From Pseudomonadota bacterium (GTDB lineage: Bacteria > Pseudomonadota > Gammaproteobacteria > Steroidobacterales > JBCAXP01): a DNA stretch of 52,865 nt. The translations under genes and the position numbers were made by a program. The notes under the pieces were generated by a model, which worked only from the letters and a program-made list of their open reading frames with translations, had not been told where the DNA came from and made no database searches. Positions 2,884-45,365 of this stretch are shown piece after piece. Within the stretch, counting starts at the first letter, position 1; each line of letters opens with the position of its first letter. The DNA lies in contig JBCAXP010000001.1 in the NCBI GenBank assembly GCA_038533995.1, positions 1-52,865 on the forward strand. Reading direction: 5' to 3'.

Positions 2884-3834
<951 letters not shown>

Positions 3835-10090: not shown

Positions 10091-12112
10091 TTGGCCGCTC
10101 GATTAAGGAGTGATTTTTTGAACAGGAGAGATCTGGCGGAGGTTTCAGCCCTCGCAAGCCGTCTCGGACGTCTGCCCCGGCGAACGAAAAGAGCCATCAT
10201 GATCGCGGGTGACTCGGTCATGGTGCCTCTGGCGCTGATCTGTGCGTTCGCACTGCACTACGCCGAGCCGTTTCCAGCCATTCTTGCAACATGGTGGCTC
10301 TATCCCGTTGCGGTCGGGCTGACCATTCCCATCTTTGGCCGCCTGGGTCTGTATCGCGCCGTGGTGCGATTTATGGGGCCACGCGCGGTGTTCGCGGTGC
10401 TTCAGGGGGTGACCCTGATGGTGCTGTTATTCGGCGCGATCGCCCATTTCCTGGCGCCGGCTACGGTACCGTCGACCGCCCTGGTCATGTTCTGGGGCGC
10501 CACCGTGCTCTACGTTGGCGGCAGCCGCTTCGCGGTGCGCAGTTACCTGCAGCGCCAGCATCGGCGCGGCGAGCGGGTTGCCGTTTATGGCGCGGGCGGT
10601 GCCGGCGCGAGGCTGGCTTCGGCGCTGGTTGGCGGCCAGGAGTTTCTGCCCGTGGCCTTCGTGGACGACAGCGTTGCGCTGCACGGCAGCGTCATCAACG
10701 GCATCGAAGTGTTCAATCCCGCCGATCTGCCGCGCCTGGTTAACGACCTGGAAATCACAAGAGTGCTGCTTGCGTTGCCGTCGGTTTCGCGTCGCCGGCG
10801 TATGCGAATCATCAGCCAGCTTGAAGACCTGCACGTTCACATCCAGACCATGCCGAACTTCTCCGACCTGATCTCGGGCAACGCGCGCGTGGACGAAATT
10901 CGCGATGTGGACGTGGCTGATCTGCTGGGCCGGGACACCGTGCCCCCGCACGAGGCGCTGCTGGACGCCTGCATTCGCGACAAGGTCATCATGGTGACCG
11001 GTGCTGGCGGCTCCATCGGCTCGGAGCTGTGCCGCCAGATCGTGCGCCTCGGGCCCAAGCGCCTGCTGCTCGTCGAGCACTCGGAGCTGGCGCTGTACGA
11101 CGTGAACAAAGAGCTGTCGGCCACGTTCGAGCGCGACGGCAAAGACAACGACGCGGTCGATGTGGTGCCGCTGCTGGGCTCTGTCGAAAACAAGGAACGC
11201 ATGACGTCGATCATGACGTCTTTTGGCGTACAGACCGTCTACCACGCCGCCGCCTACAAGCACGTGCCCATGGTGGAGCAAAACATGCTCCAGGGCGTGC
11301 ACAACAACGTGTTCGGCACCTACCACACAGCGCTGGCGGCGATGGAGTGCAACGTCGAGACGTTCGTGCTCGTGTCCACCGACAAGGCGGTCTGCCCCAC
11401 GAACGTTATGGGCGCGACCAAGCGCCTTGCCGAGATGGTGTTGCAGGGGCTTGACGACCGTGGCACGTCCACACGCTTTTGCATGGTGCGCTTTGGCAAC
11501 GTGCTGGAGTCATCCGGCTCCGTCGTGCCCCTGTTCCGCGAGCAGATTCGCCGCGGTGGCCCCGTGACGGTCACGCACCCGGAGATCATTCGTTACTTCA
11601 TGACCATTCCGGAGGCGGCGCAGCTCGTCATCCAGGCCGGTTCGCTCGGCAGGGGCGGTGACGTGTTCGTGCTCGACATGGGCAAGCCGGTGAAGATTGC
11701 CGATCTCGCCAAGCGCATGGTTCACCTCATGGGCCTGACGGTGATGAGCGAAGACAACCCCGACGGCGACATCGAAATCAAGTACACGGGCCTCAGGCCG
11801 GCGGAAAAGCTCTACGAGGAGCTGTTGATCGGCAACAACGTGATGGGCACGAAGCACCCGATGATCATGCGCGCCGAGGAGCAAATGCTGCCGTGGGAGC
11901 GCGTCAGCAGGGTGCTGGATGAATTGCGTGTTGCCTGCAGGCGCTTTGACTGCGAGTCGGCCCGCCACACCCTGATGGCCGCGGTCAACGAGTACAAGCC
12001 GTCGTCCAACGTTGTGGACCTTGTCTGGCAGACGCAGGAAGTGGCGAGTTCCGATGGCGCGATCACGCCAATTGCGAACGTCACGCCGCTGAGCAGCAAC
12101 CGCACCCAGTAA
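10091..12112 (+). CDS. Membrane-anchored nucleotide-sugar 4,6-dehydratase (WbpM/PglF/CapD family)
   Basis: The N-terminus has TM segments after LGRLPRRTKRAIMIAGDSVMV. The SDR core reads VMVTGAGGSIGSEL...YHAAAYKHVP...TDKAV.PTNVMGATKR. The start is uncertain: TTG at 10091 or shortly downstream. Confidence 0.85.
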   Translation: MAARLRSDFLNRRDLAEVSALASRLGRLPRRTKRAIMIAGDSVMVPLALICAFALHYAEPFPAILATWWLYPVAVGLTIPIFGRLGLYRAVVRFMGPRAVFAVLQGVTLMVLLFGAIAHFLAPATVPSTALVMFWGATVLYVGGSRFAVRSYLQRQHRRGERVAVYGAGGAGARLASALVGGQEFLPVAFVDDSVALHGSVINGIEVFNPADLPRLVNDLEITRVLLALPSVSRRRRMRIISQLEDLHVHIQTMPNFSDLISGNARVDEIRDVDVADLLGRDTVPPHEALLDACIRDKVIMVTGAGGSIGSELCRQIVRLGPKRLLLVEHSELALYDVNKELSATFERDGKDNDAVDVVPLLGSVENKERMTSIMTSFGVQTVYHAAAYKHVPMVEQNMLQGVHNNVFGTYHTALAAMECNVETFVLVSTDKAVCPTNVMGATKRLAEMVLQGLDDRGTSTRFCMVRFGNVLESSGSVVPLFREQIRRGGPVTVTHPEIIRYFMTIPEAAQLVIQAGSLGRGGDVFVLDMGKPVKIADLAKRMVHLMGLTVMSEDNPDGDIEIKYTGLRPAEKLYEELLIGNNVMGTKHPMIMRAEEQMLPWERVSRVLDELRVACRRFDCESARHTLMAAVNEYKPSSNVVDLVWQTQEVASSDGAITPIANVTPLSSNRTQ

Positions 12113-33480: not shown

Positions 33481-33741
33481 TGGCGACTCCTGTTATCAAT
33501 GGCGGTTGACGTTGGCAACGGCGCCTGTTGTGCAGACAGCGGTCTCCCCTCTTACAATGGCGCGCGAGCCCGTGCAAGCGGTTTGCGCCAGGCAGAGCCC
33601 AGGTCGCGATGACCCGAGCGGGCGGCAGCGTTGGTTGACTCTGCGATGCTCACCAAGGCAATGTTCCCACTGCACCGACGTTGTGCTGCACGCCTTGCCT
33701 GCAGCTCCCTACCTGAAGACGCCAGACATGGAGTTAAGTTG

Positions 33742-35898
33742 ATGATCAGGACAGCATTCGGATTCTTACTGATGATGTGCGCGGTGTTCGCGCACGCCGA
33801 GGAAATCCACTGGCCGCAGGAGCTCACCGCAGACAACGGCGCAGTCATCGTTATCTACCAGCCGCAGATCGAGACGTTCTCGGGCAACAGTCTCGAAGGG
33901 CGGGCCGCGGTCTCGGTCAAGTCGGAAGAAACGGGCGGCGCGCCGGTGTTCGGGGCGATCTGGTTCCAGGCAAAGATCGACACGGACCGCGACACGCGCT
34001 CAGCGCTCATTCGCGACGTGGACGTTGCCGACGTGCGCTTCGCCGATGCCACCGACGCGCAGAAGGAGAGCCTGGCCAAGTTTATCGAGGGCAGAATTGA
34101 AGGTTCCGCGTTCCCGATCAGCGTCGACCAGGTGCTGACCGATCTCGACACCGCGGGCGGCGCCGATGCAGAACTCAAGCACGATGCCCCCGAGATCATG
34201 CTGTCCACGGTGCCGGCGCTGCTGGTGTCCATCGACGGTGAGCCCAGGCTGGAGAAAATCGACGGCTCGAAGTACGAACGCGTCGTGAACACGCCGTTCC
34301 TGATCGTGAAAGACGGCAGCGACTACTATCTCTACATCGGCAGCGACGCCTGGTACGAGGCGAACGCCATCGCCGGTCCGTGGGCCGAGACGGGTCGCGT
34401 GCCGCAGGACATCCGCTCGCTCGTCGAGCCTGCAGAAGACGACGACGCAAAGACGGACGGGCTTCGCATCATCATCGCCACGACACCCACGGAGCTGGTG
34501 GTGTCAGACGGCCCGCCGTCCTGGACGCCTGTTGAAGGCATGGGCCTTCTCTACATGGATAACACCGACAGCAACGCGTTCCTGGAGCTGTCGACGCAGC
34601 GCTACTACGTGCTGCTGTCAGGCCGCTGGTACCGCAGCGAAGGTATGGAAGGCGAGCTCACCTGGATGCACGTGCCCAATGACCAGCTGCCCGAACCGTT
34701 CGCAGACATTCCGGAAGACTCGGTGAACGGCGCCGTCCTGAGCCAGGTGGCTGGTACGCAGCAGGCACGGGAGGCGGTGCTAGACAACACCATTCCGCAA
34801 ACCGCCGCGATTCAGCGCGACGACGATTCGTTCACTGTCGAGTACGACGGCAAGCCGGACTTTGCGCCGATCGAGAACATCCAGGTGCAGTACGCGCAGA
34901 ACACGAGCGAGTCGGTATTCAAGTACGGCAAGGACTACTTCGCGTGTAACGATGGCGTCTGGTACCAGTCGGCGAGCGCCACCGGACCGTGGAAGGTTGC
35001 CACCGAGGTACCGCAGGCCATCTACGACATTCCGGCCTCCAACCCGCACCACAACGTGACGTACGTGAAAGTGTACGACGTTACGCCGCAGGTAGTGTAC
35101 GTGGGCTACACGCCGGGCTACTACGGCAGCTACTACTATCGCGGCACGGTGATTTATGGCACGGGCTGGTACTACAACCCGTGGTACGGCCGTTACTACT
35201 ACCCGCGTTACCCGACCTGGGGTTTTCACGTGCACTACAACCCCTGGTACGGCTGGGGCTTCGGTGTGTCATGGACGAACGGGCCGTTTCGCTTCACCTT
35301 CTCGAGCCGCGGCGCCTGGTGGGGCGTGGGCGGTTACCGCCCTTACCCGCGCCCGGTGCCGTACGGCGGCTACCGCAAGACCAATATCAACATCAACAAC
35401 ACGATCAACATCAATGGTCGCCCCAACCGCCCGCAGACCCGGCCCAATCTCTACAACCGGCCGCAGAACTTAAAGCGCAATGCGCAGCGGCCGGCGGTGC
35501 CGGCAGACCGCCGCGCACGGCCTGCCAACAACCTGCAGAACAACGTACTGACAGACCGGTCGGGCAACGTGTATCAGCGTGATAACAACGGCAGTTGGAA
35601 ACAGCGCGACAACGGCCAGTGGAAGCCGCCGCAGAACCTCGACCGCTCGGCGCCGTCGACGCGGCCGTCGCAACTGCCGTCGTCACGGCCATCGCAGCTG
35701 CCGTCTTCGCGGCCATCGCAGATGCCCTCGTCCCGGCCATCGCAAATGCCGTCGTCACGCCCGTCGCAGTTTCCGTCGAGCCGTCCTGCACAGCCGGCGG
35801 TTCGGCCGCAGCTCGAGCGGGACTTCGGCGCGCGTCAGCAGGGTATGCGGCGCAGCCAGGGATTTCAGCGCCAAGGTGGCGGTGGGCGGCGCCGCTAG
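33742..35898 (+). CDS. Secreted protein of unknown function with a Tyr/Trp-rich block, an Asn/Ile tract and Ser/Pro tandem repeats
   Basis: The start is ATG at 33742 (GGAG 8 nt upstream), giving MIRTAFGFLLMMCAVFAHA/EE with a signal peptide. The track start at 33631 is rejected. Confidence 0.7.
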   Translation: MIRTAFGFLLMMCAVFAHAEEIHWPQELTADNGAVIVIYQPQIETFSGNSLEGRAAVSVKSEETGGAPVFGAIWFQAKIDTDRDTRSALIRDVDVADVRFADATDAQKESLAKFIEGRIEGSAFPISVDQVLTDLDTAGGADAELKHDAPEIMLSTVPALLVSIDGEPRLEKIDGSKYERVVNTPFLIVKDGSDYYLYIGSDAWYEANAIAGPWAETGRVPQDIRSLVEPAEDDDAKTDGLRIIIATTPTELVVSDGPPSWTPVEGMGLLYMDNTDSNAFLELSTQRYYVLLSGRWYRSEGMEGELTWMHVPNDQLPEPFADIPEDSVNGAVLSQVAGTQQAREAVLDNTIPQTAAIQRDDDSFTVEYDGKPDFAPIENIQVQYAQNTSESVFKYGKDYFACNDGVWYQSASATGPWKVATEVPQAIYDIPASNPHHNVTYVKVYDVTPQVVYVGYTPGYYGSYYYRGTVIYGTGWYYNPWYGRYYYPRYPTWGFHVHYNPWYGWGFGVSWTNGPFRFTFSSRGAWWGVGGYRPYPRPVPYGGYRKTNININNTININGRPNRPQTRPNLYNRPQNLKRNAQRPAVPADRRARPANNLQNNVLTDRSGNVYQRDNNGSWKQRDNGQWKPPQNLDRSAPSTRPSQLPSSRPSQLPSSRPSQMPSSRPSQMPSSRPSQFPSSRPAQPAVRPQLERDFGARQQGMRRSQGFQRQGGGGRRR
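35659..35796 (+). repeat. 24-nt (8-aa) tandem coding repeat, five full copies plus a partial one: (S/T)RPSQ(L/M/F)PS
   Basis: The copies read TRPSQLPS SRPSQLPS SRPSQMPS SRPSQMPS SRPSQFPS SRPAQP, taken directly from the frame of the 33742 gene. Confidence 0.9.
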
Positions 35899-36173
35899 GG
35901 GAGGTATACGTGCCGCGGTGCTGACCGTTCTGGATTCTCACGACGTCGGTCAGTCCACACCGCGTCAACGTCGACATTCAGCCTTCGTAACACGTTACGT
36001 ACCGACTCGGCGTCCGGCGCGCGAAAGTGACACAGCAGCCGGTCCGAATGCTGCGACTCCACGGTGCGCAGCCACTGCACGCGGTGAAGCAGCACGCAAG
36101 TGGCCGCGTTCAGGTTGGCCGGCAGGGCGCCGCTCGCAACGCGGCACTCCACATACACGTCCGTGAGCTTCAA
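35895..36173 (-). CDS. Single-domain DUF4242-like protein
   Basis: The start is TTG at 36173, a TTGA overlap with the upstream stop. It contains LLCHFRAPDAESVRNVLRR, the same motif seen twice in the 38173..38712 protein. The longer track ORF (to 36431) overlaps the upstream gene and is rejected. Confidence 0.55.
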   Translation of the reverse strand: MKLTDVYVECRVASGALPANLNAATCVLLHRVQWLRTVESQHSDRLLCHFRAPDAESVRNVLRRLNVDVDAVWTDRRRENPERSAPRHVYLP

Positions 36174-37477
36174 ACCGCCACCCGCTGCTCGCCCGTCACG
36201 CTGACGTCGCGCGGATGGTTGGCAAGAAAGCCTGCGAGATGCTGCGTGATATCCCGCGCATCGTCGGCCGCGCCGTGCATGAAGCTGGACTTGCGCCGCC
36301 GCATGAACGGGAGGCCCATGGCGTAAAGGCCTGGTGCATCGACCACGCCGCCGGTGTGCCTTAAGTTTCCCTTGCGGTCGAGCACGGGAACGTCCAGCCA
36401 GGAGTAGTCGGGGCGAAAACCCGTCGCCCACACCACCGTCTTGACGGCGTCGCCGTCTAGCTTTAGCGAGAGCGTCGCTGTGGCGTCGACCTGCGTTGGC
36501 TCGAAGGTCTCCGCGGGCGCGGCATCGATGCCAGCGTCTGCAGCAAATTCATCGATCGCCTTCAGGAGACGGTTCATCTTCAGGTCGGCAAGCTGGCAGA
36601 CGTTGCGCAGCGAGCCGGAAAACTGTGCTTTGCCGTCGCGCACGCCCATCAGGCGGCCCGTGATGCGGACTCCCTGAGCACGCAGCGCATTCAGGTCAAG
36701 GGTGGCGTTGTCGGGCGAACCGACAAGCTGCGGTGACGGCACGCGTCGCAGCCGCGCAAGATCTTCGGCTTCGAAAATGCACTCGTCCAGCAGGCCGGAG
36801 GCCTGCATCCACCACTTGATGTCGCGACCGCGATAGCGACGCGGCAGCCGCACGTGCTCACCGGCGGCCAGCGTGACGGCGCGGCCGCTGCGCGCGATTT
36901 CATCGGCGAGCTGCAGCCCGGTTGCGGACGCGCCGACGACCAGCACACCGCCCTCGGCGAGCTGCGCCGGGTTCTTGTACTGGTGCGCCGTGACCTGCGC
37001 GATGTCCACAGGCATGGCTTGGGAAACCTTCGGCAGGCTCGCGGTGTTAAACGCACCGCTCGCGATGACCAGCGCCCGACACTGCCAGTTTCCCTGCGTC
37101 GTTTCCACGCGGTAGCCGTCGCCTGCAGCATGCACGCGAGTGACGGTGGTGTTGGTGCGGACCGGCGCGTCGATTCGTGCAGCATAAGCGGCCACAAAAT
37201 CCGCCACCTCCGGCATGGTCATGAAGCCGTCGGGGTCACTGCCTTCGTACGCCTGGCCCGGCAGGCTGCTCATCCAGTTGGGCGTCAGCAGGCGCAGCGA
37301 GTCCCAGCGCTCCTTGCGCCAGGAGTTCGCCACCGCGCCGCGCTCAAGCACGACGTGAGCGATGCCGAGGCTGGTGAGGTTAAAGCTCACGGCAAGACCG
37401 CAGTGACCGGCACCGATGACGACAACGTCAACGGCGCCGGCCTGGCCACAGGGGTTTGGCAGTGACATGAGGCTCAC
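36170..37477 (-). CDS. FAD/NAD(P)-dependent oxidoreductase (flavin monooxygenase-like)
   Basis: The first dinucleotide fold is VDVVVIGAGHCGLAVS and the second is VLVVGASATGLQLADE. It also has ATGFRPDYSWL near the C-terminus. An ATGA-type 4-nt overlap joins it to the OsmC gene. Confidence 0.85.
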   Translation of the reverse strand: MSLMSLPNPCGQAGAVDVVVIGAGHCGLAVSFNLTSLGIAHVVLERGAVANSWRKERWDSLRLLTPNWMSSLPGQAYEGSDPDGFMTMPEVADFVAAYAARIDAPVRTNTTVTRVHAAGDGYRVETTQGNWQCRALVIASGAFNTASLPKVSQAMPVDIAQVTAHQYKNPAQLAEGGVLVVGASATGLQLADEIARSGRAVTLAAGEHVRLPRRYRGRDIKWWMQASGLLDECIFEAEDLARLRRVPSPQLVGSPDNATLDLNALRAQGVRITGRLMGVRDGKAQFSGSLRNVCQLADLKMNRLLKAIDEFAADAGIDAAPAETFEPTQVDATATLSLKLDGDAVKTVVWATGFRPDYSWLDVPVLDRKGNLRHTGGVVDAPGLYAMGLPFMRRRKSSFMHGAADDARDITQHLAGFLANHPRDVSVTGEQRVAV

Positions 37478-38034
37478 GCCACCGTCACGACGACGTCAGT
37501 GGGGTTCGTGATGATGTCGAACACCGCCGAGCGCTTCTGCGACTGCGCCACCAGCGCGGCGATGTCTTCTTCCGAAGCGTCTGCGTCGATGTCGTAGGTG
37601 ACTTTCAGGCTGTCGAAGCCGTTGCGCACGTCGCCATCGATGCCGAGGATGCCCTGGATATCCATACCGGCTTCCAGCGTGGCCTTAACCGAGCGCAGCT
37701 GGATGTCGCGATTTGAGGCAACCGCCGCGATGCCGGCGGTGAGGCAGCCGGCGAGGCCGACCAGCACGAATTCCACCGGCGTCGGACCCTTGTCTTCGGA
37801 GGCGAAGATCTCCGGGTGGTCGCTGTCGAAGCTCGTCGGCTCGCGGTGCGACTGCTCTTCGCCGAGACCAAAGAAGCCGTCGATCGTCGAGCGGCTGTGC
37901 GTGCCGCGCACCCACTCGTTGCTGGCGCGCCAGACAAAGCGGGCGGCTTCCGGTGCCTCGGTCAGGGCAGCGCGTGCGCCCAGCAGTGCTTCTACGTTGA
38001 CGCCGTTGTCGGTGGTGTGTGCGTTGGTTTCCAT
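37474..38034 (-). CDS. OsmC/Ohr-family peroxiredoxin-like protein
   Basis: GPTPVEFVLVGLAGCLTAGIAAVA... matches the OsmC-family core with its conserved Cys. GAGGAG lies upstream of the ATG. Confidence 0.8.
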   Translation of the reverse strand: METNAHTTDNGVNVEALLGARAALTEAPEAARFVWRASNEWVRGTHSRSTIDGFFGLGEEQSHREPTSFDSDHPEIFASEDKGPTPVEFVLVGLAGCLTAGIAAVASNRDIQLRSVKATLEAGMDIQGILGIDGDVRNGFDSLKVTYDIDADASEEDIAALVAQSQKRSAVFDIITNPTDVVVTVA

Positions 38035-38102
38035 GATGTGTGCTCCTCGTCTGAATATGTGATTGCCGTTTCGGCGGGACGGGAGCTACTTTGCGGCGGG
38101 TC

Positions 38103-38133
38103 CGTGGAAGCCACCGTGGAAGCTGTCGTGGAA
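38103..38133 (-). promoter_or_regulatory. Three exact TTCCACG heptamers in strict 12-bp phase upstream of the OsmC gene (candidate activator site)
   Basis: The minus strand reads TTCCACGacagcTTCCACGgtggcTTCCACG. On the plus strand CGTGGAA occurs at 38103, 38115 and 38127. The repeats lie 69-99 nt upstream of the ATG at 38034. Confidence 0.45.
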
Positions 38134-38172
38134 TTTTTGGTTTTGTTGGCGTTTTCCGCCAACCTGTTGAAT

Positions 38173-38712
38173 TTACGCGGCTTGTTCTGGCGAGATTCGT
38201 AGAAATGACCAGGCACTTTCCACTGGCATGCCCGCCTCTCGCTGCGCAATTCTCACGGACTCCGCGTCCGGCGCCTTGTAGAGGCAGGCCATTCGACGCC
38301 TGTCGGCGGAGAGAAAGGTCCGCATGAACGTGACGCGATGGTTTTCCAGGCAGTGAAGGGAAGCGTCTTCCTGCGCCTGCAGGGCGTCAAGGTCGACCGG
38401 CTCGTCAAAGCTGCGGTGCACAATGACGTTTGCCTCCAGAATTTCCTCCTCGGTGCGGCCGGGCGCGTCGTGCGTTGTACCTGGAAAGTGAATACGCATG
38501 TCCGCGTCGCCATTGCGCAACGCCGTGCGGATGGATTCGGCGTCCGGGCCGCGAAAATGGCACAGGAGGTCCTGTTCGCCAGTGGAGAAAAAACTCTGTT
38601 GCCAGGTGACTCGATACAGCGGGAAGCATCCCATCGATTCTTCCGCCATGGCCTGCAGCGCCGGCAGCGGAACAGGCTCATCAAAATGGCGCAGTAAGAA
38701 TATGTCACTCAT
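38173..38712 (-). CDS. Tandem two-domain DUF4242-like protein
   Basis: The two halves are homologous: FLLRHFDEPV...LLCHFRGPDAESIRTALRN and IVHRSFDEPV...MACLYKAPDAESVRIAQRE. An ATGA overlap joins it to the upstream regulator gene. Confidence 0.65.
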   Translation of the reverse strand: MSDIFLLRHFDEPVPLPALQAMAEESMGCFPLYRVTWQQSFFSTGEQDLLCHFRGPDAESIRTALRNGDADMRIHFPGTTHDAPGRTEEEILEANVIVHRSFDEPVDLDALQAQEDASLHCLENHRVTFMRTFLSADRRRMACLYKAPDAESVRIAQREAGMPVESAWSFLRISPEQAA

Positions 38713-41705
38713 AGGTTTTTCCTCATCATCTCATCCAGCCGTCCAATGATATTGCCGGTCCAGCGGGCCGCCACCGGGCGCAGCTCCTCGACCGCGGTGC
38801 GGTGAGCCTGTGCGGCCTCTTCCGTGTCCCGGTGGCCGCAGGCAAGCACGGCGTGGGCCAGCAGCATCTCCGTCGGGCGCTCCAGTATTATCGCGTATTC
38901 CAGCGCTTCGCTCGCCCGCTCCACTGCCCTGGCCTTCTCGCCGCGTTCGCAGTCTGCCAGCGCCGCGCGGGTGAGCGTGTACGCCAAGCGGTATTTTGCG
39001 TCGGCGGCCCGCAGGTCCACCAGTGCGGTATTCAGCGCCTCGTCGTCGTTGTGCTGCAGGTAGTGGCAAAGGCCAACCAGCGCGTCGGCGAAGGGTTTCT
39101 CGCTGCCCTCGCGAATCTTGTTGCCCAGCGTTACGAGCTGCTCTGCTCGCTCTCGCGCCTCATCGACATCGCCTCGCTGAAGCGCAATGACAACCAGGTA
39201 TTCCGAGGCCAGGAACTCGTTGATGCGGTCGCCCGCCGACTTGCACAGGGCGCGGGACTCCTGCAGCAATTCCTCGGCCTCATCCATTCGGTTCTGGTAG
39301 AAGCGCAGCATGCCGATGCCGGCGCAGATGGCGGGATGCGACATCTGCTGGCGTTGGGCCAGGGCACTCGCTTCCATGAGCATGGCGTCTGCCTCGGACA
39401 GGTCGCGCTCGAGCATCACGAGGCACTTGGCAGTTTCCGCTGTGCCAATTACCTGGGCCTTGCTGTCCTTGCCGCGAACCACGCGGGCCGACTGCAGCGA
39501 CTGTTTGCGCGCTACCTCCCAGTTGCCCTGGGTCCAGCGGATCGTGGCGGCCAGGTGATAGCCCAGCCGCGCATGGGACAGGTCACCGATATCGAGCGCG
39601 CGTTCCGCCAGTGACGCAAAGCGTTCCGCGACGGTTTCCGGTTCGTCGAGCGGCGTCGCTGTAAGCAACACTTCGTGGAGCTGGATTTCCAGCGGCACGC
39701 GTATAGCTTCCGTAAGCTCTTCAACGAACTGCAGGCCCTTTTTTGCAAGAGAGGCGGCGTCTTCATTGGCAAAAAAGCGCAGGCTGAGGCGCCCGGCCGC
39801 CACCATAGAGCGCGCCGCAAGCTCCGGGTCGTTGCTCTGCGTGGCGTGATAGGCAAGCCACGAGGCGCGGCTCAGGTCGCGGGTTGCCTCGCGCACGATG
39901 GCCTCGGCAATTCGGCGATGCATCACCTGCCTGCGTCGTGGCGAAATGTCCCGGTAGACGGCCTTGGCGATGAGGTCGTGGGAAAAGCGCAGGCCCTGGT
40001 TTGCCGGCACCAGCATGGCATGGGCCTCCGCCATCTCCAGCGCTTCGTCGATCACCGGCGTCTCGAAGCCGGTAACCATCTCGAGCGCCTTGATATCGAA
40101 CGGCGGCACTAGGGCCGACGCCCAGCGCAGCACGTCGGCGCCAGCCGTGGAAAACCGCGCCAGCCGCTCGCGCACCAGGTCGTCAAGCGAGCCGGCGCCC
40201 GAGCCCTCTATCTCGGCGCGCGCAAGCTCGATGGCGAGCAGGGGGTTGCCCGCGCAGGCGCTCGCGAGCCGCTCGCCATCGGCGCCCGGCGCCTGCTCGG
40301 TAATGATCTGCTGCAGGGCCGTCTCGGGTAGCGGCCCGATTGGCAGTTCGTGCAGCAAACCGTCACGGCGAAGCCCGCGAAGCGACTGCTGCAGCGCGGT
40401 GTTGTCGCGCAGCTCGCCCTCGCGCGCGGCGAGCACCGCGAGAACAGGGCGGTCGCGATTCAGCCGCACAACGTAGTGCAGCGCGGCGGCGCTGCTGTCG
40501 TCGCTCCAGTGGGTGTCGTCAAACATGATGACCACCGGCCGGTCCTGACTTGCGATGCGGATAAAGTTGGCAAGACCGCTGAAAAGGCGGTCGCGATTCG
40601 CCTCGTCGCTGGCGCCGAATACCGCGTCGTAGGCGCTCGCGTCCAGCGCCCGAATGGCATCGGTCCACAGGCCAAACGGGCGCGTCGCGTCTGATTCGAA
40701 GGCGGCGGCACGCAGCACCGTCGCGTCCAGCGTGCCGCACTCGGCGAGCAGCGCAGCGAGCAGCCGGCTCTTGCCGACACCCGGCGCGCCCACGAGCAGG
40801 TGCACGGTGGCCGATTGCGCCTGCGCGAGATTGTGCAGGGTGCCGGAGAGTTGGGCGCATTCGCGTTCACGGCCCACCAGGCCCTTGGCAGGCTGCACCG
40901 GGGGCGACTGCGCCGGCGGCGAAACGGAGGGCGCCGACGAACCGCGGGGCGGCGTTTCCGCTGCGGTCGCGACGGTGGGCGCAGAAGCGGGTGCGGTGGC
41001 CTGCCGTGCCGCGGCCAGCGCACCGCTCGACGGGATGCCCGCCTCGCGCAGCATGTGCATGCCGAGCTGGAATTGTTGCTCCGCCTCACCGGCCTGGCCC
41101 GCGGCGTGGCAGAGGCGAATCAACGAGGACCGCGCCTCCTCATCGTAGGGCGCAAGGCCAACACGGGCGCGCGCGTGCGGCAGCGCCCGATCGGGCGTTT
41201 GCGCAAAGCGCCGGACCAGCTCGGCCAGCAGCGCTAGCCGGTCGCGAAGGGCCCGTTCGCGTTCTGCAATGCACCACGAGTGAAAGTCGTGGAATCTTGA
41301 AAACTCGATACCTTCCAGGAAGTTGCCGCGGTAATTCTGGGCGGCGGCCTCGAGCGCGTCATCGCTGTCTGCCTGGTTCTGATCGATGAGTTGGCGCAGG
41401 GACAGTACGTCAATGGCTACATCATCGGTGTTGAGCTCAACGCAGCTTCGGTCTGCAACAATGCGCTTGCTGTCGGTGTCGTCGACCAGCCGACGCAGCT
41501 TCGACAGGCTCCAGCGCAGCGAGCCGCGCGGGTCATCCGGAATTTCCCACAGCAACTCACACAGGTGCTCCCGCCGGAACTGGCGGGGCTTCAAGGCAAG
41601 ATACGCGAGCAGCGCCCGGGTTTTCTTCGACGGCGGCAGCGCAGCCGGGGCGCCATCCCTGAACACCCGGAAGTCCCCCAGGAAATGCAGTTCAATAGCA
41701 GCCAT
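38709..41705 (-). CDS. SARP/AfsR-like regulator: OmpR-type winged helix + BTAD + P-loop NTPase (STAND-like) + TPR-like C-terminus
   Basis: The start is ATG at 41705. The N-terminus reads MAAIELHFLGDFRVFRDGAPAALPPSKKTRALLAYLAL...LCELLWE...DPRGSLRWSLSKLRR. The BTAD-like region reads YRGNFLEGIEF..FHSW. Walker A is LLVGAPGVGKSRLL and Walker B-like is VVIMFDDTHW. A long helical repeat tail follows. Confidence 0.8.
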   Translation of the reverse strand: MAAIELHFLGDFRVFRDGAPAALPPSKKTRALLAYLALKPRQFRREHLCELLWEIPDDPRGSLRWSLSKLRRLVDDTDSKRIVADRSCVELNTDDVAIDVLSLRQLIDQNQADSDDALEAAAQNYRGNFLEGIEFSRFHDFHSWCIAERERALRDRLALLAELVRRFAQTPDRALPHARARVGLAPYDEEARSSLIRLCHAAGQAGEAEQQFQLGMHMLREAGIPSSGALAAARQATAPASAPTVATAAETPPRGSSAPSVSPPAQSPPVQPAKGLVGRERECAQLSGTLHNLAQAQSATVHLLVGAPGVGKSRLLAALLAECGTLDATVLRAAAFESDATRPFGLWTDAIRALDASAYDAVFGASDEANRDRLFSGLANFIRIASQDRPVVIMFDDTHWSDDSSAAALHYVVRLNRDRPVLAVLAAREGELRDNTALQQSLRGLRRDGLLHELPIGPLPETALQQIITEQAPGADGERLASACAGNPLLAIELARAEIEGSGAGSLDDLVRERLARFSTAGADVLRWASALVPPFDIKALEMVTGFETPVIDEALEMAEAHAMLVPANQGLRFSHDLIAKAVYRDISPRRRQVMHRRIAEAIVREATRDLSRASWLAYHATQSNDPELAARSMVAAGRLSLRFFANEDAASLAKKGLQFVEELTEAIRVPLEIQLHEVLLTATPLDEPETVAERFASLAERALDIGDLSHARLGYHLAATIRWTQGNWEVARKQSLQSARVVRGKDSKAQVIGTAETAKCLVMLERDLSEADAMLMEASALAQRQQMSHPAICAGIGMLRFYQNRMDEAEELLQESRALCKSAGDRINEFLASEYLVVIALQRGDVDEARERAEQLVTLGNKIREGSEKPFADALVGLCHYLQHNDDEALNTALVDLRAADAKYRLAYTLTRAALADCERGEKARAVERASEALEYAIILERPTEMLLAHAVLACGHRDTEEAAQAHRTAVEELRPVAARWTGNIIGRLDEMMRKNL

Positions 41706-41790
41706 TGCAAGTCCGACGCGCGTGCATTTTGCTCTTCTGATTGGAGTGTTTGTCCAAGCTAGTCTAATAAAAAGGGCATTGGGTGGGAAA

Positions 41791-41821
41791 AACCACGGTA
41801 AATTCAACGCTGGCTTCCCTG
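41791..41821 (+). promoter_or_regulatory. Degenerate TTCCACG-like heptamers in 12-bp phase upstream of cysK-grx (weak candidate site)
   Basis: AACCACG is at 41791, TTCAACG at 41803 and TTCCCTG at 41815. They match the 38.1-kb heptamer at 5/7, 6/7 and 5/7 positions, with the same period and the same orientation relative to the downstream gene. Confidence 0.3.
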
Positions 41822-41879
41822 AACCACCGCCACCATGAGCGCCAACCTCTTTAACGCAACAAGCACCGGAGAAAACCCC

Positions 41880-43373
41880 ATGACGCGCTACGCCAACATC
41901 CTTGAGACCATCGGCAACACGCCGCTCGTGCGGCTCAACAGGCTTGCGCCTGACTACGTCAATCTTTACGTCAAGATGGAGTCATTCAACCCCATGGCGT
42001 CCGTCAAGGACCGCATGGCGAATGCCATTATCGAGGATGCCGAGCGCAGCGGCGCCCTGTCGCCCGGCCAGACGGTGGTGGAGGCAACCAGCGGCAACAC
42101 CGGCATTGGCCTTGCGATGGTGTGCGCCCAGAAGGGCTACCCGCTGGTGGTGACCATGGCCGAGAACTTCAGCATCGAGCGGCGCAAAATGCTGCGCTTC
42201 CTCGGTGCAAAAATTGTGCTGACGCCGGCTGCGGAAAAAGGCACCGGCATGCTGAACAAGGCCGTTGAGCTGGCCGAAACCCACGGCTGGTTTCTGTGCA
42301 GGCAGTTCGAGAACGAGTCAAACGCCAACGTGCACACGCAAACCACGGCGCAGGAGATCATCGCCGACATGGGCGACGAGCCGCTTCACGCGTTCGTCTC
42401 CGGCTTTGGCACTGGCGGCACGCTGCTGGGTACCGCACGCGGCCTCAAGGCACACGCCTCGTCGATCCGGGTGGTGGCCGCCGAGCCGGACAATTCGCCC
42501 GTGCTCGCCAGCGGCATTCGCCAGGAAAGGGACGCCAGTGGTGCGCCCACCAGCAGCCACCCCCACTTCCGGCCGCACCTGATGCAGGGCTGGAGTCCGG
42601 ATTTTGTTTCCCTGTTGACCGAGACCGCCGTGGATGAGCGCCTTGTCGACGAAATTCTGCCGGTGGCCGGCGACGACGCGCTGCGCCTGTCGCGGGAGCT
42701 TGCGAGCAAGGAAGGCATCTTTGTCGGCACCTCCGCTGGCGGTACGCTGGCCGCAGCGCTAGACGTAGCGCGGCGTGCGGAACCTGGCGCCAACATCGTG
42801 TGCATGCTGCCGGACACGGGTGAGCGCTACCTGTCCACGCCGCTGTTCGAGCACATCGGCGAGGACATGGATGAAGACGAGATGGCCATTTCGCGGTCCA
42901 CGCCCGGCTACCGCTTTGACGTGACCGCCTCACCGCCACCGCCCGCCCAGGAACCGGCCGCCGAGCCGGCGCTGGACGCCGAAGCCGAGGCCTTTGTCGA
43001 CTCGGTGACTACCGACAACAAAGTGGTGATGTTCGCGCTGGAATGGTGCGAGTTCTGCTGGTCAGCCCGCAAACTCTTCGCTCGCCTCGGCGTGGACTTC
43101 GAAAGCGTTGACCTGGACTCGGTCGCGTTCCAGGACGACAACCGCGGCGGCAAGATTCGCCAGGTGCTCAAAGCCCGGCTTGGCAGTCCGACTATCCCGC
43201 AGATTTTCATCGGCGGCGAACACATCGGCGGCTGCACCGACCTGCTGGACGAAATGGCAGACGGAGCCTTGCGCAAGCGCCTGGAGGCCTGCGGCGCAGC
43301 CTTCGATGCCGAAGTGGCCATCGACGCCTACGCATTGCTGCCCAAGTGGATCCACTCGCGTAAATCAGCCTAG
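41880..43373 (+). CDS. Cysteine synthase (CysK/CysM family, PLP-dependent) fused to a C-terminal glutaredoxin-like domain
   Basis: The start is ATG at 41880 (GGAG 9 nt upstream); the track start at 41835 has no RBS. The CysK region reads IGNTPLVRLNR...SFNPMASVKDR...TSGNTGIGLA...GFGTGGTL. After a Pro/Ala/Glu linker the Grx region reads VVMFALEWCEFCW...TIPQIFIGGEHIGGCTDL. Confidence 0.85.
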   Translation: MTRYANILETIGNTPLVRLNRLAPDYVNLYVKMESFNPMASVKDRMANAIIEDAERSGALSPGQTVVEATSGNTGIGLAMVCAQKGYPLVVTMAENFSIERRKMLRFLGAKIVLTPAAEKGTGMLNKAVELAETHGWFLCRQFENESNANVHTQTTAQEIIADMGDEPLHAFVSGFGTGGTLLGTARGLKAHASSIRVVAAEPDNSPVLASGIRQERDASGAPTSSHPHFRPHLMQGWSPDFVSLLTETAVDERLVDEILPVAGDDALRLSRELASKEGIFVGTSAGGTLAAALDVARRAEPGANIVCMLPDTGERYLSTPLFEHIGEDMDEDEMAISRSTPGYRFDVTASPPPPAQEPAAEPALDAEAEAFVDSVTTDNKVVMFALEWCEFCWSARKLFARLGVDFESVDLDSVAFQDDNRGGKIRQVLKARLGSPTIPQIFIGGEHIGGCTDLLDEMADGALRKRLEACGAAFDAEVAIDAYALLPKWIHSRKSA

Positions 43374-43386
43374 GAGGTTAGCAGAC

Positions 43387-43989
43387 ATGTCATTTATCAA
43401 GACAACCGCGCCGGCTGACGCAGAGGGCGACGTGCTGGCAATGTACCAGCGGCAGCAGAACTCCTGGGGTTACGTACCGAACTACGCGAAGGTGTTTTCT
43501 GGACGGCCGGAAGTGCTCGCGCGCTGGGCGCGGCTGCTGGCGGAGCTGCGCCGGCCGATGGACGACCGGCGCTTCGAGCTGGTGACGTTTGCTGCGGCCA
43601 TTGCGCTGCGCAACTCCGCCTGCTCACTGCAGCACGGCAAGCTGCTCGCAGAGTTCATCGGCGAGGACGTAGTGCGGGACCTGCGGCGCGGGCGGTTCGC
43701 GCCGTCACTGACCGAGCTGGACACGGCGCTTTTTCAGTTCGCGCAAAAAGTAGCGGTGGACGCATCGCGTGTGACCGCCGGCGACGTGCAGCGGCTCAAG
43801 GCCCTCGGGCTGGACGACGACGAGGTCTTTGACGTTGCCGGCGCTGCGGCGGGCAGGGCGTTTTTCACCAAGCTGCTGGACGGGCTGGGCGTGGAAACCG
43901 ACTCTGCCTTCCTGGCGCTCGATGAGCCGTTTCGCCGTGCGATGACGGTCGGCCGCCCCATCGCTTTCGAAGAGGTCGAGCGGCTTTAG
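43387..43989 (+). CDS. AhpD-like / carboxymuconolactone-decarboxylase-superfamily 'peroxidase-related' protein
   Basis: AGGAGG lies upstream of the ATG at 43387. MSFIKTTAPADAEGDVLAMYQRQQNSWGYVPNYAKVF... shows the typical N-terminus of the uncharacterised peroxidase-related subgroup. Only a single Cys is present (NSACSLQHG). Confidence 0.75.
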   Translation: MSFIKTTAPADAEGDVLAMYQRQQNSWGYVPNYAKVFSGRPEVLARWARLLAELRRPMDDRRFELVTFAAAIALRNSACSLQHGKLLAEFIGEDVVRDLRRGRFAPSLTELDTALFQFAQKVAVDASRVTAGDVQRLKALGLDDDEVFDVAGAAAGRAFFTKLLDGLGVETDSAFLALDEPFRRAMTVGRPIAFEEVERL

Positions 43990-45365
43990 TCGTCGCCCGG
44001 GAATAGGTCCGGGCGAAGCGCCTGGAGACTGGTTCTCAGGCGCGAGCCGTAGTCGTCCGGAAACGTCCACGTCGGGTATTCCTCGGACCAGACCAGCCCG
44101 CGCTCGGCCGGCGGCAGGTCATAGAGCAGCGTCATGAGAATGTCGCTGCTCACCCACGGGCTGCCTCGAAAGTAGGCGTGCCCTTTGCCCGCCTGGCTGT
44201 CTTCGGCATCAGAGACGTCGATGATGCGCAACGGTTCGGTATTGGAGAGAAACTCACGGCTGGACGGCCCTAGCTGGTCCAGCCTGTCCATTTGCCCGCT
44301 ACGGTCGCGGCGGAGAAGGAACCGGGAGGCACCCAGCGCCTTGTCGCCGGATGACGCGTAGATCGTCAGCGAGTCCGGCACTCGCAGCGCGCCGTCCAGC
44401 AGGTAGCCGCCAAGAACGTCGCGATCGATGTCGCTGCCTGCCAGGATGACGTGGCCGATATTCAGCCATTCTTCGGCTTCTTTCTCGGTGCCCTCCCTGG
44501 CCATGAGCCCCAGGTCGGCCAGCATGCGGCCCACGGCGCGGGTGCCCGCGCTGAAACCGATGATGTGAATGCGCTCGGCCCGGCTTTCCTCCGCGATGAA
44601 CACCACCAGCTCGCGCAGCGCCCGGGCGGAGGCAATGGCCGTCTCGATGTCGGCGAGGTACGCAAGCCGCTTGGGCGTGGTCGGCCAGCTGAAGGCGACG
44701 AAGGCGCCGTTGTAGCCGAGAAAGTGCCACAGCTCCGAAGCGACGAGCAGCGGGTTTTCGAAGTCGACCTTGTAACCGTGCACGTAAATGTACACATCCT
44801 CGCTAGCCGAGTTCGCAAGGCGCTCGTCGATTTCCGCGATGAATTGCCGGCCGGGCTCGTCGCTGCGTTCGATGCCTTCGTCGAATGGCCGCACCGTTGA
44901 CGCAAGCGGGCCAAACTCCTCCACGCCGGCGACCTCGAGGGGGTAGTCATCGGTGCGGTTTTTCAAAAGCGATATGCGGCGCGCCTCCTCCCAGGTAATC
45001 GTGGAGTCGTAGCCAAACTGGATGTTGGCGCTGCCGAGCCGCAGCACGTGGCCGCGCTGGTTGGTGTAGTGCTCGTAGCGTTTGTCGTCTGCTACTGCCG
45101 GCGCGCGGTCGGTCGCGTACAGCATGTCGGGCTGCGCGCCTTCCTTCACGGTGTCGTCATCGACGAAGGGGTCGATGTTGCCGTCGTCGTATACGTCGGG
45201 TGCCGGCATCAGGTTAAGCTGGTACGGTCCGTTGCCGGACGCGCACGCCGCTATGCACAGCGCTGCGGCAAAAACGAGTAGCGGACGCACCGCAGGCGCA
45301 GTGCGCGTACCGGCCAAGTCTCTCGGGTACACTTTCGCGTCGTCGTATTTCTTGTCGTCTAACAT
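43986..45365 (-). CDS. Alpha/beta hydrolase, DUF900 family, lipoprotein
   Basis: The lipobox is ALCIAAC. It also has VYIYVHGYKVDFENP...FSWPT and the nucleophile-elbow-like IHIIGFSAGTR. Confidence 0.75.
   Translation of the reverse strand: MLDDKKYDDAKVYPRDLAGTRTAPAVRPLLVFAAALCIAACASGNGPYQLNLMPAPDVYDDGNIDPFVDDDTVKEGAQPDMLYATDRAPAVADDKRYEHYTNQRGHVLRLGSANIQFGYDSTITWEEARRISLLKNRTDDYPLEVAGVEEFGPLASTVRPFDEGIERSDEPGRQFIAEIDERLANSASEDVYIYVHGYKVDFENPLLVASELWHFLGYNGAFVAFSWPTTPKRLAYLADIETAIASARALRELVVFIAEESRAERIHIIGFSAGTRAVGRMLADLGLMAREGTEKEAEEWLNIGHVILAGSDIDRDVLGGYLLDGALRVPDSLTIYASSGDKALGASRFLLRRDRSGQMDRLDQLGPSSREFLSNTEPLRIIDVSDAEDSQAGKGHAYFRGSPWVSSDILMTLLYDLPPAERGLVWSEEYPTWTFPDDYGSRLRTSLQALRPDLFPGDD

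Follow-up and report, generated by a model that had tools for sequence, protein, structure and literature searches.

The stretch of DNA analysed here, referred to as the window (52.9 kb, ∼63% G+C across its whole length; positions 1–52,865 of contig JBCAXP010000001.1 from a gammaproteobacterium of the order Steroidobacterales), contains a seven-gene cluster at positions 35895–43989 that probably constitutes a regulon under a large activator of the SARP type. All positions are given in window numbering. Five of the genes are located on the minus strand within 35895–41705 and encode, in the order of reading, a regulator with BTAD, AAA_16 and TPR regions (38709–41705, 998 aa), a tandem DUF4242 protein (38173–38712, 179 aa), an OsmC-like protein with a single cysteine (37474–38034, 186 aa), a flavoprotein of the FAD/NAD(P)H type that resembles flavin monooxygenases (FMOs; 36170–37477, 435 aa), and a single DUF4242 protein (35895–36173, 92 aa), hereafter gene 5. 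The open reading frame (ORF) coordinates agree with the original prediction, made by reading the sequence without database searches, that these genes overlap by 4 nt (38709–38712, 37474–37477 and 36170–36173) save for one 138-bp gap (38035–38172) between the tandem DUF4242 and OsmC-like genes. When profile searches were run, the families proposed there (DUF4242, OsmC, BTAD and others) were recovered with assignments above Pfam thresholds. The five genes had been taken for the entire module, but they are only part of it, as two divergent plus-strand genes with the same operator had been overlooked, i.e. a fusion of CysK and glutaredoxin (CysK-Grx; 41880–43373, 497 aa counted from M16) and a one-cysteine AhpD/CMD-like ‘peroxidase-related’ protein (43387–43989, 200 aa).

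The arrangement is conserved in many other genomes. A scan of one genome per species returned 251 relatives, the best 80 of which were examined and mapped by tblastn with the seven window proteins (individual loci are given L numbers). In essentially every locus that was long enough, the gene order was CMD ← (2OG oxygenase) ← CysK-Grx ↔ regulator → 2xDUF4242 → OsmC → flavoprotein, where the 2-oxoglutarate (2OG) oxygenase is optional. The carriers comprise Woeseiaceae (the closest, with 64% identity), Halomonas, Billgrantia and other Halomonadaceae, Halieaceae, Steroidobacteraceae, Porticoccaceae, Cellvibrionaceae, Azoarcus, Aromatoleum, Rhodocyclaceae and a few others, and identities across the loci are 60–79% for CysK-Grx, 62–82% for the OsmC-like protein, 49–67% for the flavoprotein and 40–64% for the tandem DUF4242 protein. 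The same synteny was observed in metagenome contigs with Pfam-annotated neighbours, and in the neighbourhoods of tandem DUF4242 homologues the regulator-DUF4242-OsmC-flavoprotein row always had a PALP + Glutaredoxin fusion ahead of it on the opposite strand and usually by a CMD gene. Only two accessory genes recur, a 2OG-Fe(II) oxygenase gene situated between those for CysK-Grx and CMD (22 loci) and an extra DUF4242 gene (∼18 loci). The linkage of these genes is far beyond chance, and the co-occurrence of DUF4242, OsmC and flavoprotein genes, which the original prediction had proposed as a point to check, is strong (80 species-level loci plus metagenome contigs). A literature search covering DUF4242, CysK-Grx fusions, OsmC with SARP, and Nit1C flavoproteins returned no description of the cluster.

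The 138-bp gap contains a predicted operator with a −10 element, termed P_osmC (38088–38137, minus strand), in which three TTCCACG direct repeats (38127–38133, 38115–38121 and 38103–38109) follow one another with a 12-bp period and precede a −10-like CAAAGT (38088–38093). With the gap aligned by eye, the minus-strand repeats read AAAATTCCACG ACAG CTTCCACG GTGG CTTCCACG, and this repeat pattern has exactly one match in the window. The second predicted operator, P_cysK-grx (41787–41836, plus strand), is composed of the repeats AACCACG (41791–41797), TTCAACG (41803–41809) and TTCCCTG (41815–41821) with a −10-like CACCAT (41831–41836). The operator consensus is AAAA(T/A)(A/T)CCACG-N4-TTCCACG-CTGG-(C)TTC(C/A)(A/T)CG. 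With the seed TCCACG and 12-bp spacing, at least 15 of 18 positions were matched in 45 of the 81 loci, and the same criterion (≥15/18) applied at 10, 11 or 13 bp spacing, or to shuffled sequence, returned zero loci. The −10 hexamer NANNNT starts 9 nt past the third repeat, with A at position 2 in 72/74 leaders and T at position 6 in 74/74. No promoter was called by a sigma-70 consensus scan of window positions 35700–42000.

A 50-nt weight matrix detected only two sites of ≥12 bits in the 52.9-kb window, P_osmC with 54.5 bits and P_cysK-grx with 43.5 bits. Over 1.48 Mb of related loci, 87 of its matches fell on the osmC position, 73 on that of cysK-grx and only 6 elsewhere, and both operators were found in all 70 loci containing both regions. 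Among the six off-position matches, those in L024 and L074 occupy the promoter positions expected there, in loci truncated by the end of a contig, those in L027, L029 and L058 mark a box ahead of the CMD gene where cysK-grx is missing, and the sixth is an accessory site in L026. Since the matrix was built from these sites, its absolute scores are circular; no such circularity attaches to the emptiness of the remaining sequence or to the period test.

That P_osmC is an activator-dependent promoter of the SARP type for the osmC-flavoprotein-DUF4242 genes is a well-supported prediction. The same holds for the overall regulatory architecture, which would comprise a SARP-LAL-type activator, two activator-dependent promoters, and a regulator-DUF4242 pair that is either constitutive or autoregulated. 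The single operon that had been proposed for the five minus-strand genes is not retained, because the gap carries a conserved, apparently activator-dependent promoter; the genes are predicted to form two units, one with the regulator and tandem DUF4242 protein and the other with OsmC, the flavoprotein and the single DUF4242. In SARP promoters, direct repeats lie 11 or 22 bp apart, and the 3′ repeat sits 8 bp away from the −10 element and also overlaps the −35 (PMC10936776), and three heptamers with 4-bp spacers are described for PimR, the SARP-LAL archetype (PMC5930380). The number of repeats and the geometry between the 3′ repeat and the −10 element follow this rule at the window promoters; the 11/22-bp period is not found there.

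A hairpin with a perfect 7-bp stem, GTTGGCG-GAAAA-CGCCAAC (38145–38163, minus strand; read from the sequence), immediately follows the stop codon of the tandem DUF4242 gene, upstream of the operator, and is itself followed by A-rich sequence. It was not called by the terminator scan and is not a canonical terminator, because there is no U-tract after it, and it may provide partial insulation of the two transcription units. Similar hairpins occur in some of the loci with long gaps and in none of the Halomonas loci, where the boxes begin 2 nt past the stop codon. Another short G+C-rich hairpin (38057–38080, minus strand), with equivalents in many loci, is located ∼8–10 nt past the predicted P_osmC −10 element, i.e. 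near the 5′ end of the transcript. Its clade variants include GACCG..CGGTC, CCCGG..CCGGG and GCCG..CGGC, and the mean single-sequence z-score is a modest −1.5; neither an RNAalifold consensus structure nor an Rfam match was obtained for it. A candidate anti-Shine-Dalgarno hairpin in the osmC leader (TTGCTCC...GGAGCAA) was rejected, as its 5′ arm overlaps or abuts the −10 element and is probably outside the transcript, and the pairing is confined to one clade and decays without compensation in the window. No Rfam family was matched in the whole window (gathering threshold) or in the gap (E-value threshold).

Additional operators were observed in two loci. In L026, an operator at 2978–3027 (plus strand) precedes an ORF at 3179–3403 that encodes a DUF1127 protein (PF06568, 33.9 bits), and in L045 an operator at 10560–10609 (plus strand) precedes a small DUF1127 ORF (10609–11082), after which comes an alpha/beta-hydrolase gene. 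The DUF4242-osmC gap of L045 contains two boxes, the first of which marks the accessory gene. DUF1127 proteins may thus be occasional members of the regulon.

The regulator has, as read from its sequence, the architecture of SARP-LAL or large SARP proteins. Residues 1–235 correspond to a winged helix-turn-helix (wHTH) and a BTA domain (SARP), residues ∼270–500 to an AAA_16 P-loop NTPase, and residues ∼500–998 to a TPR-like helical region. In the Pfam searches, BTAD scored 38.5 bits (cut-off 22.1), AAA_16 70.5 bits (cut-off 32.6) and TPR_12 25.6 bits, which is under its 30.1 cut-off. A profile of residues 1–250 could be aligned over its full length with EmbR (2FEZ, E = 3.6e-5) and with the SARP domain of AfsR (8HVR, E = 0.01). 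A single-sequence search gave no match, so the kinship, detectable at the profile level only, is remote. Similarity to TIGR03903 spans residues 362–973, and in its central and C-terminal region the regulator is similar to ‘kinase/cyclase’ STAND proteins in their AAA_16-TPR part. In the homologue alignment, the most conserved part of the regulator is the wHTH segment LPPSKKTRALLAYL...PDDPRGSLRWSLSKLRRL, in line with the conservation of the operator, and, where the NTPase is present, the Walker A (G306, G309, G311 and K312) and Walker B (D396 and D397) residues are conserved. The ATG start at 41705 is backed by the homologues and by an independent gene call. A TTG start at 41807, which would give an ORF of 1032 aa, was rejected as an over-extension, as the P_cysK-grx operator lies inside it and the homologues start at the shorter position.

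The NTPase is not a constant part of the regulator. In Halomonadaceae, the orthologue is composed of 761 residues (L004:5719–8004; also L019–L021, L025, L027–L030 and others) and retains the SARP domain with 60% identity and, with 46% identity, the 490 residues at the C-terminus, and the AAA_16 NTPase is wholly lost; no Pfam domain was detected in this 761-aa protein at E ≤ 0.01. The operators and the tandem DUF4242 gene are kept in these loci despite the loss, so the ATPase is not essential to the system, and the ‘large ATP-dependent regulator’ of the original prediction can no longer be regarded as one of its requirements. The observation that a SARP is unusual in this context was in agreement with published reviews, according to which SARPs are exclusive to Actinobacteria (PMC10972967) and proteobacterial hits are atypical and do not have BTAD (PMC7040171). 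The familiar picture of an actinobacterial activator within a secondary-metabolite cluster does not apply here: the relatives belong to Gamma-, Beta- and Alphaproteobacteria, their neighbours are redox genes, and there are no conserved scaffold enzymes. A second protein with a SARP domain was noted inside or beside the cluster in two loci, in L065 (10437–12092) joined to an alpha/beta-hydrolase-like region, and in L006 (4600–6534 and 6548–7777) as a 644-aa BTAD-TPR protein adjoining a second FMO paralogue.

The tandem DUF4242 gene follows the regulator gene closely. The distance from the regulator stop codon to the tandem DUF4242 start codon is ≤25 nt in all 81 loci, and ∼60 of them show a 4- or 8-nt overlap, 4 nt being the commonest case; judged from this arrangement, the two genes are translationally coupled. 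Being coupled to the regulator and located upstream of the induced promoter, the tandem DUF4242 gene travels with the regulator and not with the effectors. The protein matches PF14026 (SCO4226-like) with 85.2 bits in two stretches, and residues C29, C51, C121, C143 and H81 are invariant in the homologue alignments. Its AlphaFold2 model (pLDDT 92.3) contains two ferredoxin-like domains with a beta-alpha-beta-beta-alpha-beta arrangement. The Foldseek matches are generic two-domain alpha+beta-barrel proteins, including Cld/HemQ and tandem ABM monooxygenases, with a TM-score of ∼0.5 and ∼10% identity, and allowed no transfer of function. Among 1.84 billion representatives, relatives of the tandem protein formed 612 representative clusters at E ≤ 1e-3, 278 at 1e-10 and 25 at 1e-30. 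PDB sequence searches with the tandem protein, its profile or its second domain never reached the structure of SCO4226, which is the nickel-binding Streptomyces member that the original prediction had correctly mentioned (PMC4186839).

Gene 5 matches PF14026 marginally (32.4 bits versus a cut-off of 28.5) and belongs to a two-cysteine subtype (C26 and C48). Its TTG start codon lies inside the TTGA context of the flavoprotein stop and is supported by the N-termini of homologues (MTDVFVE..., GLTDVYVA...). DUF4242 genes in single, tandem or fused form follow the flavoprotein gene in ∼18 other loci, and gene 5 is a real, though variable, accessory gene of the osmC operon. The cysteine-containing motifs LLCHFRAPDAESVR, LLCHFRGPDAESIR and MACLYKAPDAESVR, earlier described as a signature of the three DUF4242 units, are indeed present in their translations, and the wider two-cysteine subtype shares them.

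This subtype includes proteins of ∼730 aa in which a type I Baeyer-Villiger/FMO enzyme carries a two-cysteine DUF4242 domain at its N-terminus (DUF4242-BVMO fusions). They comprise at least 75 protein clusters at 90% identity from Halomonas, Pseudorhodoplanes, Sandaracinaceae and others, and the two cysteines are conserved in 80/80 and 75/80 sequences. Such fusions adjoin the cluster in L026 (632–2818, minus strand), occupy the position of gene 5 in L045 (14285–16453, plus strand), and lie between the tandem DUF4242 and osmC genes in L091 (7001–9226, plus strand); in L089 and L090, the fusion is located elsewhere in the genome and is not preceded by an operator. By the Rosetta-stone argument, DUF4242 probably works together with flavin monooxygenases. 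Beside the fusion in L091, also between the tandem DUF4242 and osmC genes, is a gene for a methyltransferase of the TPMT family (PF05724; 9505–10140). Bacterial TPMTs methylate selenium, tellurium and thiol compounds.

The OsmC-like protein matches PF02566 with 60.4 bits, and its best PDB match (1e-39) is 2OPL, an uncharacterised protein from structural genomics. C97 is its sole cysteine and is invariant in 80/80 homologues, and H46 and H73 are conserved. The position of the second catalytic cysteine is occupied by another residue, as it also is in the one-cysteine protein 2OPL. With C97 as the only conserved cysteine, the protein, earlier described as peroxiredoxin-like, is not a standard two-cysteine peroxiredoxin. 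The homologue search with this protein was saturated by near-identical metagenomic matches and returned no distant contexts. In nearly all loci, the osmC and flavoprotein genes overlap by 4 or 1 nt, which points to their translational coupling.

The flavoprotein matches Pyr_redox_3 with 99 bits. Its nearest curated family is TIGR04046 (MSMEG_0569), to which it is similar over the full length, with a score of 359.5 bits that is under the cut-off of 498.35; the scores against ArsO (137.5 bits, cut-off 425) and YpdA (66 bits, cut-off 340) are lower. The best PDB matches are the small bacterial FMOs 4USQ, 4USR and 4A9W, with similarity limited to the N-terminal ∼200 residues. Both dinucleotide-binding motifs are conserved (G22/G24/G27 and G182/A185/G187). 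No conserved cysteine pair was found among the homologues (C133 is conserved in 91% and C294 in 86%, and the two are not adjacent), so the protein is not a disulfide reductase. What had been called a flavin oxidoreductase is thus a flavoenzyme without a redox-active cysteine pair, most probably a class B FMO-like enzyme with predicted oxygenase activity. Nitrilase, radical-SAM or GNAT neighbours were not found in the mapped loci. In the clade closest to the window (L001, L002, L003 and L010; 10600–13166), genes for a KefF-like Flavodoxin_2 protein and for a KefB/C-type glutathione-gated K+ efflux protein lie directly after the flavoprotein gene.

On the divergent side, the CysK-Grx fusion scores 362.8 bits with the TIGR01139 cysK equivalog (cut-off 350.95), 242.7 bits with PALP and 61.5 bits with Glutaredoxin (PF00462). 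The best PDB match of its pyridoxal phosphate (PLP) domain is DcsD (3X43), followed by CysK structures. The PLP lysine K58 and the TSGNTG loop (T85–G90) are invariant, and the C-terminal glutaredoxin domain is of the dithiol type with a CEFC motif (C405 conserved in 99% and C408 in 96%). The PLP domain also contains a conserved family-specific insertion of 14 residues, SHPxFRPHLMQGW, with two invariant histidines. It is probably of the O-acetylserine sulfhydrylase type, its specificity being a prediction. The start codon is M16 at 41880, which is conserved in at least 97% of the homologues and preceded by a GGAGA ribosome-binding site. The ATG at 41835 was rejected as a start, as it is overlapped by the −10 element of P_cysK-grx (41831–41836) and the homologues begin at the shorter position.

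The AhpD-like gene is syntenic in most loci. Its product matches the CMD family PF02627 just above threshold (23.3 bits, cut-off 23) and TIGR01926 with 59.5 bits, under the cut-off of 81.8. It does not contain a CxxC motif; C78, conserved in 100% of the homologues, corresponds to the second cysteine of that motif, and H82 is conserved in 95%.

The cluster is flanked by two genes that are not part of the conserved set. At 33631–35898 (plus strand), a convergent gene outside the conserved cluster, whose stop codon overlaps that of gene 5 by 4 nt, encodes a 755-aa protein without Pfam or NCBIfam matches; it has an N-terminal signal-like segment, a middle part rich in Tyr, Gly, Trp and Pro, and a C-terminal tail with about five tandem SSRPSQ(L/M/F)P repeats. 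The other boundary in the window genome is formed by a DUF900 alpha/beta hydrolase gene (43986–45365, minus strand; PF05990, 117 bits), which is convergent on the AhpD-like gene and absent from the conserved set of the other loci.

With a probability of about one half, we propose that the SARP-LAL-like activator runs a regulon for defence against thiol, reactive-sulfur or peroxide stress. Judging by its domain anatomy, the wHTH-BTA region of the regulator would bind the three direct repeats spaced by 12 bp. With the last repeat 9 nt before a weak −10 element and a −35 lacking, recognition of the −35 would be replaced by the bound activator, as has been shown for AfsR. P_osmC would drive expression of the one-cysteine OsmC-like protein, the FMO-like flavoprotein and the optional DUF4242, and P_cysK-grx that of the CysK-Grx fusion, the optional 2OG-Fe(II) oxygenase and the one-cysteine AhpD-like protein. 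The signal would be a thiol-reactive oxidant, e.g. a reactive sulfur species or persulfide, an organic peroxide or an electrophile, and it would be sensed by the C-terminal domain of the regulator together with its cysteine-rich DUF4242 partner. The output would be an increase in cysteine and in glutathione-linked reducing capacity: glutaredoxin would resolve mixed disulfides, persulfides or S-sulfocysteine, and CysK would capture released or ambient sulfide as cysteine. The one-cysteine OsmC-like and AhpD-like proteins would depend on an external resolving thiol, and the flavin monooxygenase, with DUF4242 serving it as an accessory domain, would oxygenate a soft nucleophile of the S type. Dependence of the proteins on cysteine is suggested by the one invariant cysteine of the OsmC-like and AhpD-like proteins, the CxxC motif of the glutaredoxin domain, the four cysteines of the tandem DUF4242 protein and the score of the CysK domain above the cysK equivalog cut-off. 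The suggestion of a redox or thiol-stress module in the original prediction is borne out by this cysteine-based redox content; the stress function is what we infer from it.

Several points weigh against this proposal or parts of it. We infer binding of the boxes by the regulator from co-occurrence and promoter geometry, and the operator period of 12 bp differs from the 11 or 22 bp described for characterised SARPs. Since both the OsmC-like and the AhpD-like protein are devoid of the second catalytic cysteine, they need not be active as peroxidases. It is only by its position that the tandem DUF4242 protein suggests a sensor role, and extra DUF4242 copies are found within the induced operon, so that the domain may have an effector role in addition to, or in place of, that of a sensor. 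Finally, a general stress response accounts less well for the optional 2OG-Fe(II) oxygenase and the BVMO fusions than does a dedicated small-molecule pathway. A more specific version of the proposal concerns the two-cysteine DUF4242 domain, which could be a redox partner: the tandem form would be a thiol sensor that gates the SARP via the TPR-like domain, even when the ATPase is missing, and the single, tandem and fused copies would be an obligatory accessory subunit of class B FMOs. We regard this version as doubtful and put it forward as a tentative idea.

The optional 2OG oxygenase, BVMO and TPMT genes make a pathway dedicated to the conversion of one specific small sulfur or selenium molecule a serious alternative to general stress defence. 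In such a pathway, CysK-Grx would join O-acetylserine to a nucleophile (sulfide, persulfide, thiosulfate, methanethiol or selenide), and oxygenation of the product or the substrate would fall to the FMO-like flavoprotein and, where present, to the BVMO and the 2OG oxygenase. Intermediates of the sulfenate or peroxide type would be dealt with by the OsmC-like and AhpD-like proteins, and the substrate would be sensed by the TPR domain of the regulator. STAND regulators, for example those of the MalT type, commonly sense small ligands, and DcsD, the structure that the PLP domain matches best in the PDB, is a beta-replacement enzyme; the family-specific insertion with its two invariant histidines, the paralogy of the flavoprotein to the pathway enzymes MSMEG_0569 and ArsO, the recurrence of the 2OG-Fe(II) oxygenase in 22 loci, the BVMO fusions in or adjoining the cluster, and the TPMT-family methyltransferase in L091 point in the same direction. 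However, the conserved gene set includes neither a transporter nor a lyase or other catabolic enzyme, the accessory oxygenases are optional and missing from the window, and the core proteins belong to classic thiol-defence families. On balance, we consider the pathway fairly unlikely. A related but improbable explanation is a small cryptic biosynthetic cluster, whose product, an S-oxidised metabolite derived from cysteine, would be formed by the CysK-like enzyme together with the FMO and the 2OG oxygenase. Biosynthetic clusters are the typical targets of SARPs, which act there as pathway-specific activators (PMC10972967), and DcsD, the closest solved structure to the PLP domain, is an enzyme of D-cycloserine biosynthesis. 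Set against this are the score of the PLP domain as a cysK equivalog, the absence of a core scaffold enzyme, an exporter and a resistance gene from the cluster, and its occurrence as a single copy with 60–80% identity (CysK-Grx and OsmC-like proteins) over several orders, which is more typical of a physiological function.

Two further readings were considered and rejected. By analogy with SCO4226, the cluster might serve the homeostasis of nickel or another metal: PF14026 is named after this protein, which binds Ni2+ and is induced by nickel (PMC4186839), and the invariant four cysteines and one histidine of the tandem DUF4242 protein could bind a metal or a cluster. The score against the SCO4226 equivalog (NF033706) is, however, 22.7 bits versus a cut-off of 125, the PDB searches gave no sequence match to SCO4226, and neither a metal transporter nor a metalloregulator is among the genes linked to the cluster. 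In addition, nickel binding by SCO4226 is weak (Kd 10 µM), and its surface His/Asp/Glu sites are conserved in Streptomyces only (PMC4186839). The equivalog score and the limited scope of the nickel site make this reading very unlikely. Still less credible is an anti-phage system of the STAND type, i.e. an Avs-like NTPase with effector genes, to which the P-loop STAND NTPase and the TPR-like sensor architecture of the regulator could be related. None of the seven proteins gave a PADLOC match, and it was on this basis that the idea was discarded; moreover, the regulator has at its N-terminus a SARP domain for binding DNA, to which the operators correspond, Halomonadaceae do without the NTPase, and the neighbours are metabolic and redox enzymes.

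What is new in the cluster is a predicted proteobacterial regulon of the SARP type, with a triple operator phased by 12 bp, cysteine-based redox enzymes and a DUF4242 partner. It would extend the SARP-type sigma-adaptation activators to Proteobacteria and to a regulon that is not concerned with antibiotics, with an operator that is testable. Because they are probably co-induced, the one-cysteine OsmC-like and AhpD-like proteins, CysK-Grx and the two-cysteine DUF4242 gain a functional context, and the DUF4242-BVMO fusions are the first guilt-by-association lead for DUF4242. If the idea of DUF4242 as a sensor and FMO subunit were true, the cluster would represent the first case outside Actinobacteria of a defined SARP regulon with its operator, devoted to the control of reactive-sulfur or thiol stress and not to antibiotic synthesis, and DUF4242 would have its first mechanistic role. 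The carriers belong to sediment, halophilic and marine lineages (Woeseiaceae, Halieaceae and Halomonadaceae), and as several carriers are in culture, among them Halomonas ventosae CECT 5797, Billgrantia desiderata, Parahaliea maris and Aromatoleum diolicum, the predictions are directly testable.

When the cluster is compared with the SARP-LAL proteins (PimR, SanG and PolR) and AfsR, the shared features are an OmpR-type wHTH followed by BTA, a P-loop NTPase (AAA_16, ‘guanylate-cyclase/LAL-like’) and a TPR-like C-terminus, together with a direct-repeat operator (three repeats in PimR) whose 3′ repeat lies ∼8 bp from a weak −10 element and replaces the −35, and a regulator gene that is divergent from a target gene. 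However, the host here is proteobacterial, the repeats recur every 12 bp, redox and thiol genes take the place of an antibiotic pathway as targets, the regulator is always paired with a tandem DUF4242 gene, and the NTPase is lost in one whole clade. By composition alone, the closest characterised set is that of the allicin clusters of Pseudomonas fluorescens PfAR-1 and Pantoea ananatis. Allicin/thiosulfinate tolerance clusters contain osmC, ahpD, trx/dsbA, flavoenzyme and kefF/kefC genes and are experimentally protective against a thiol-oxidising toxin (PMC7119367). Genes for OsmC, AhpD, a thiol-disulfide oxidoreductase and flavoenzymes are common to both, and KefF/KefB-like genes adjoin the cluster in the clade of L001. 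In contrast to those clusters, the glutaredoxin is fused to CysK (trx/dsbA there), the flavoenzyme is FMO-like (Oye/Gor there), the OsmC and AhpD proteins are one-cysteine variants, DUF4242 proteins are present, and the activator is a SARP (TetR-type regulation there).

The individual proteins can be compared with known relatives in the same way. The DUF4242 proteins share with SCO4226 the Pfam family and the ferredoxin-like beta-alpha-beta-beta-alpha-beta fold and differ from it in the tandem architecture and in two invariant cysteines per domain, and they are not members of its equivalog; SCO4226 is found in a Pho neighbourhood, unlike the DUF4242 genes described here, and its nickel ligands (His23, Asp43, Ser46, Glu74 and His76) are conserved only in Streptomyces (PMC4186839). 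The OsmC-like protein has the OsmC fold of OsmC/Ohr, and the AhpD-like protein, with a match just at the threshold, a predicted CMD fold as in AhpD; both have an invariant cysteine at the peroxidatic or first active-site position, whereas the second cysteine (resolving or of the CxxC motif) is missing in both. The flavoprotein has the Pyr_redox_3 architecture with two dinucleotide domains that is common to the small bacterial class B FMOs (SMFMO 4A9W, 4USQ and 4USR) and MSMEG_0569, but it scores below every curated family cut-off, and it is coupled to the OsmC-like and DUF4242 proteins and not to a nitrilase cluster.

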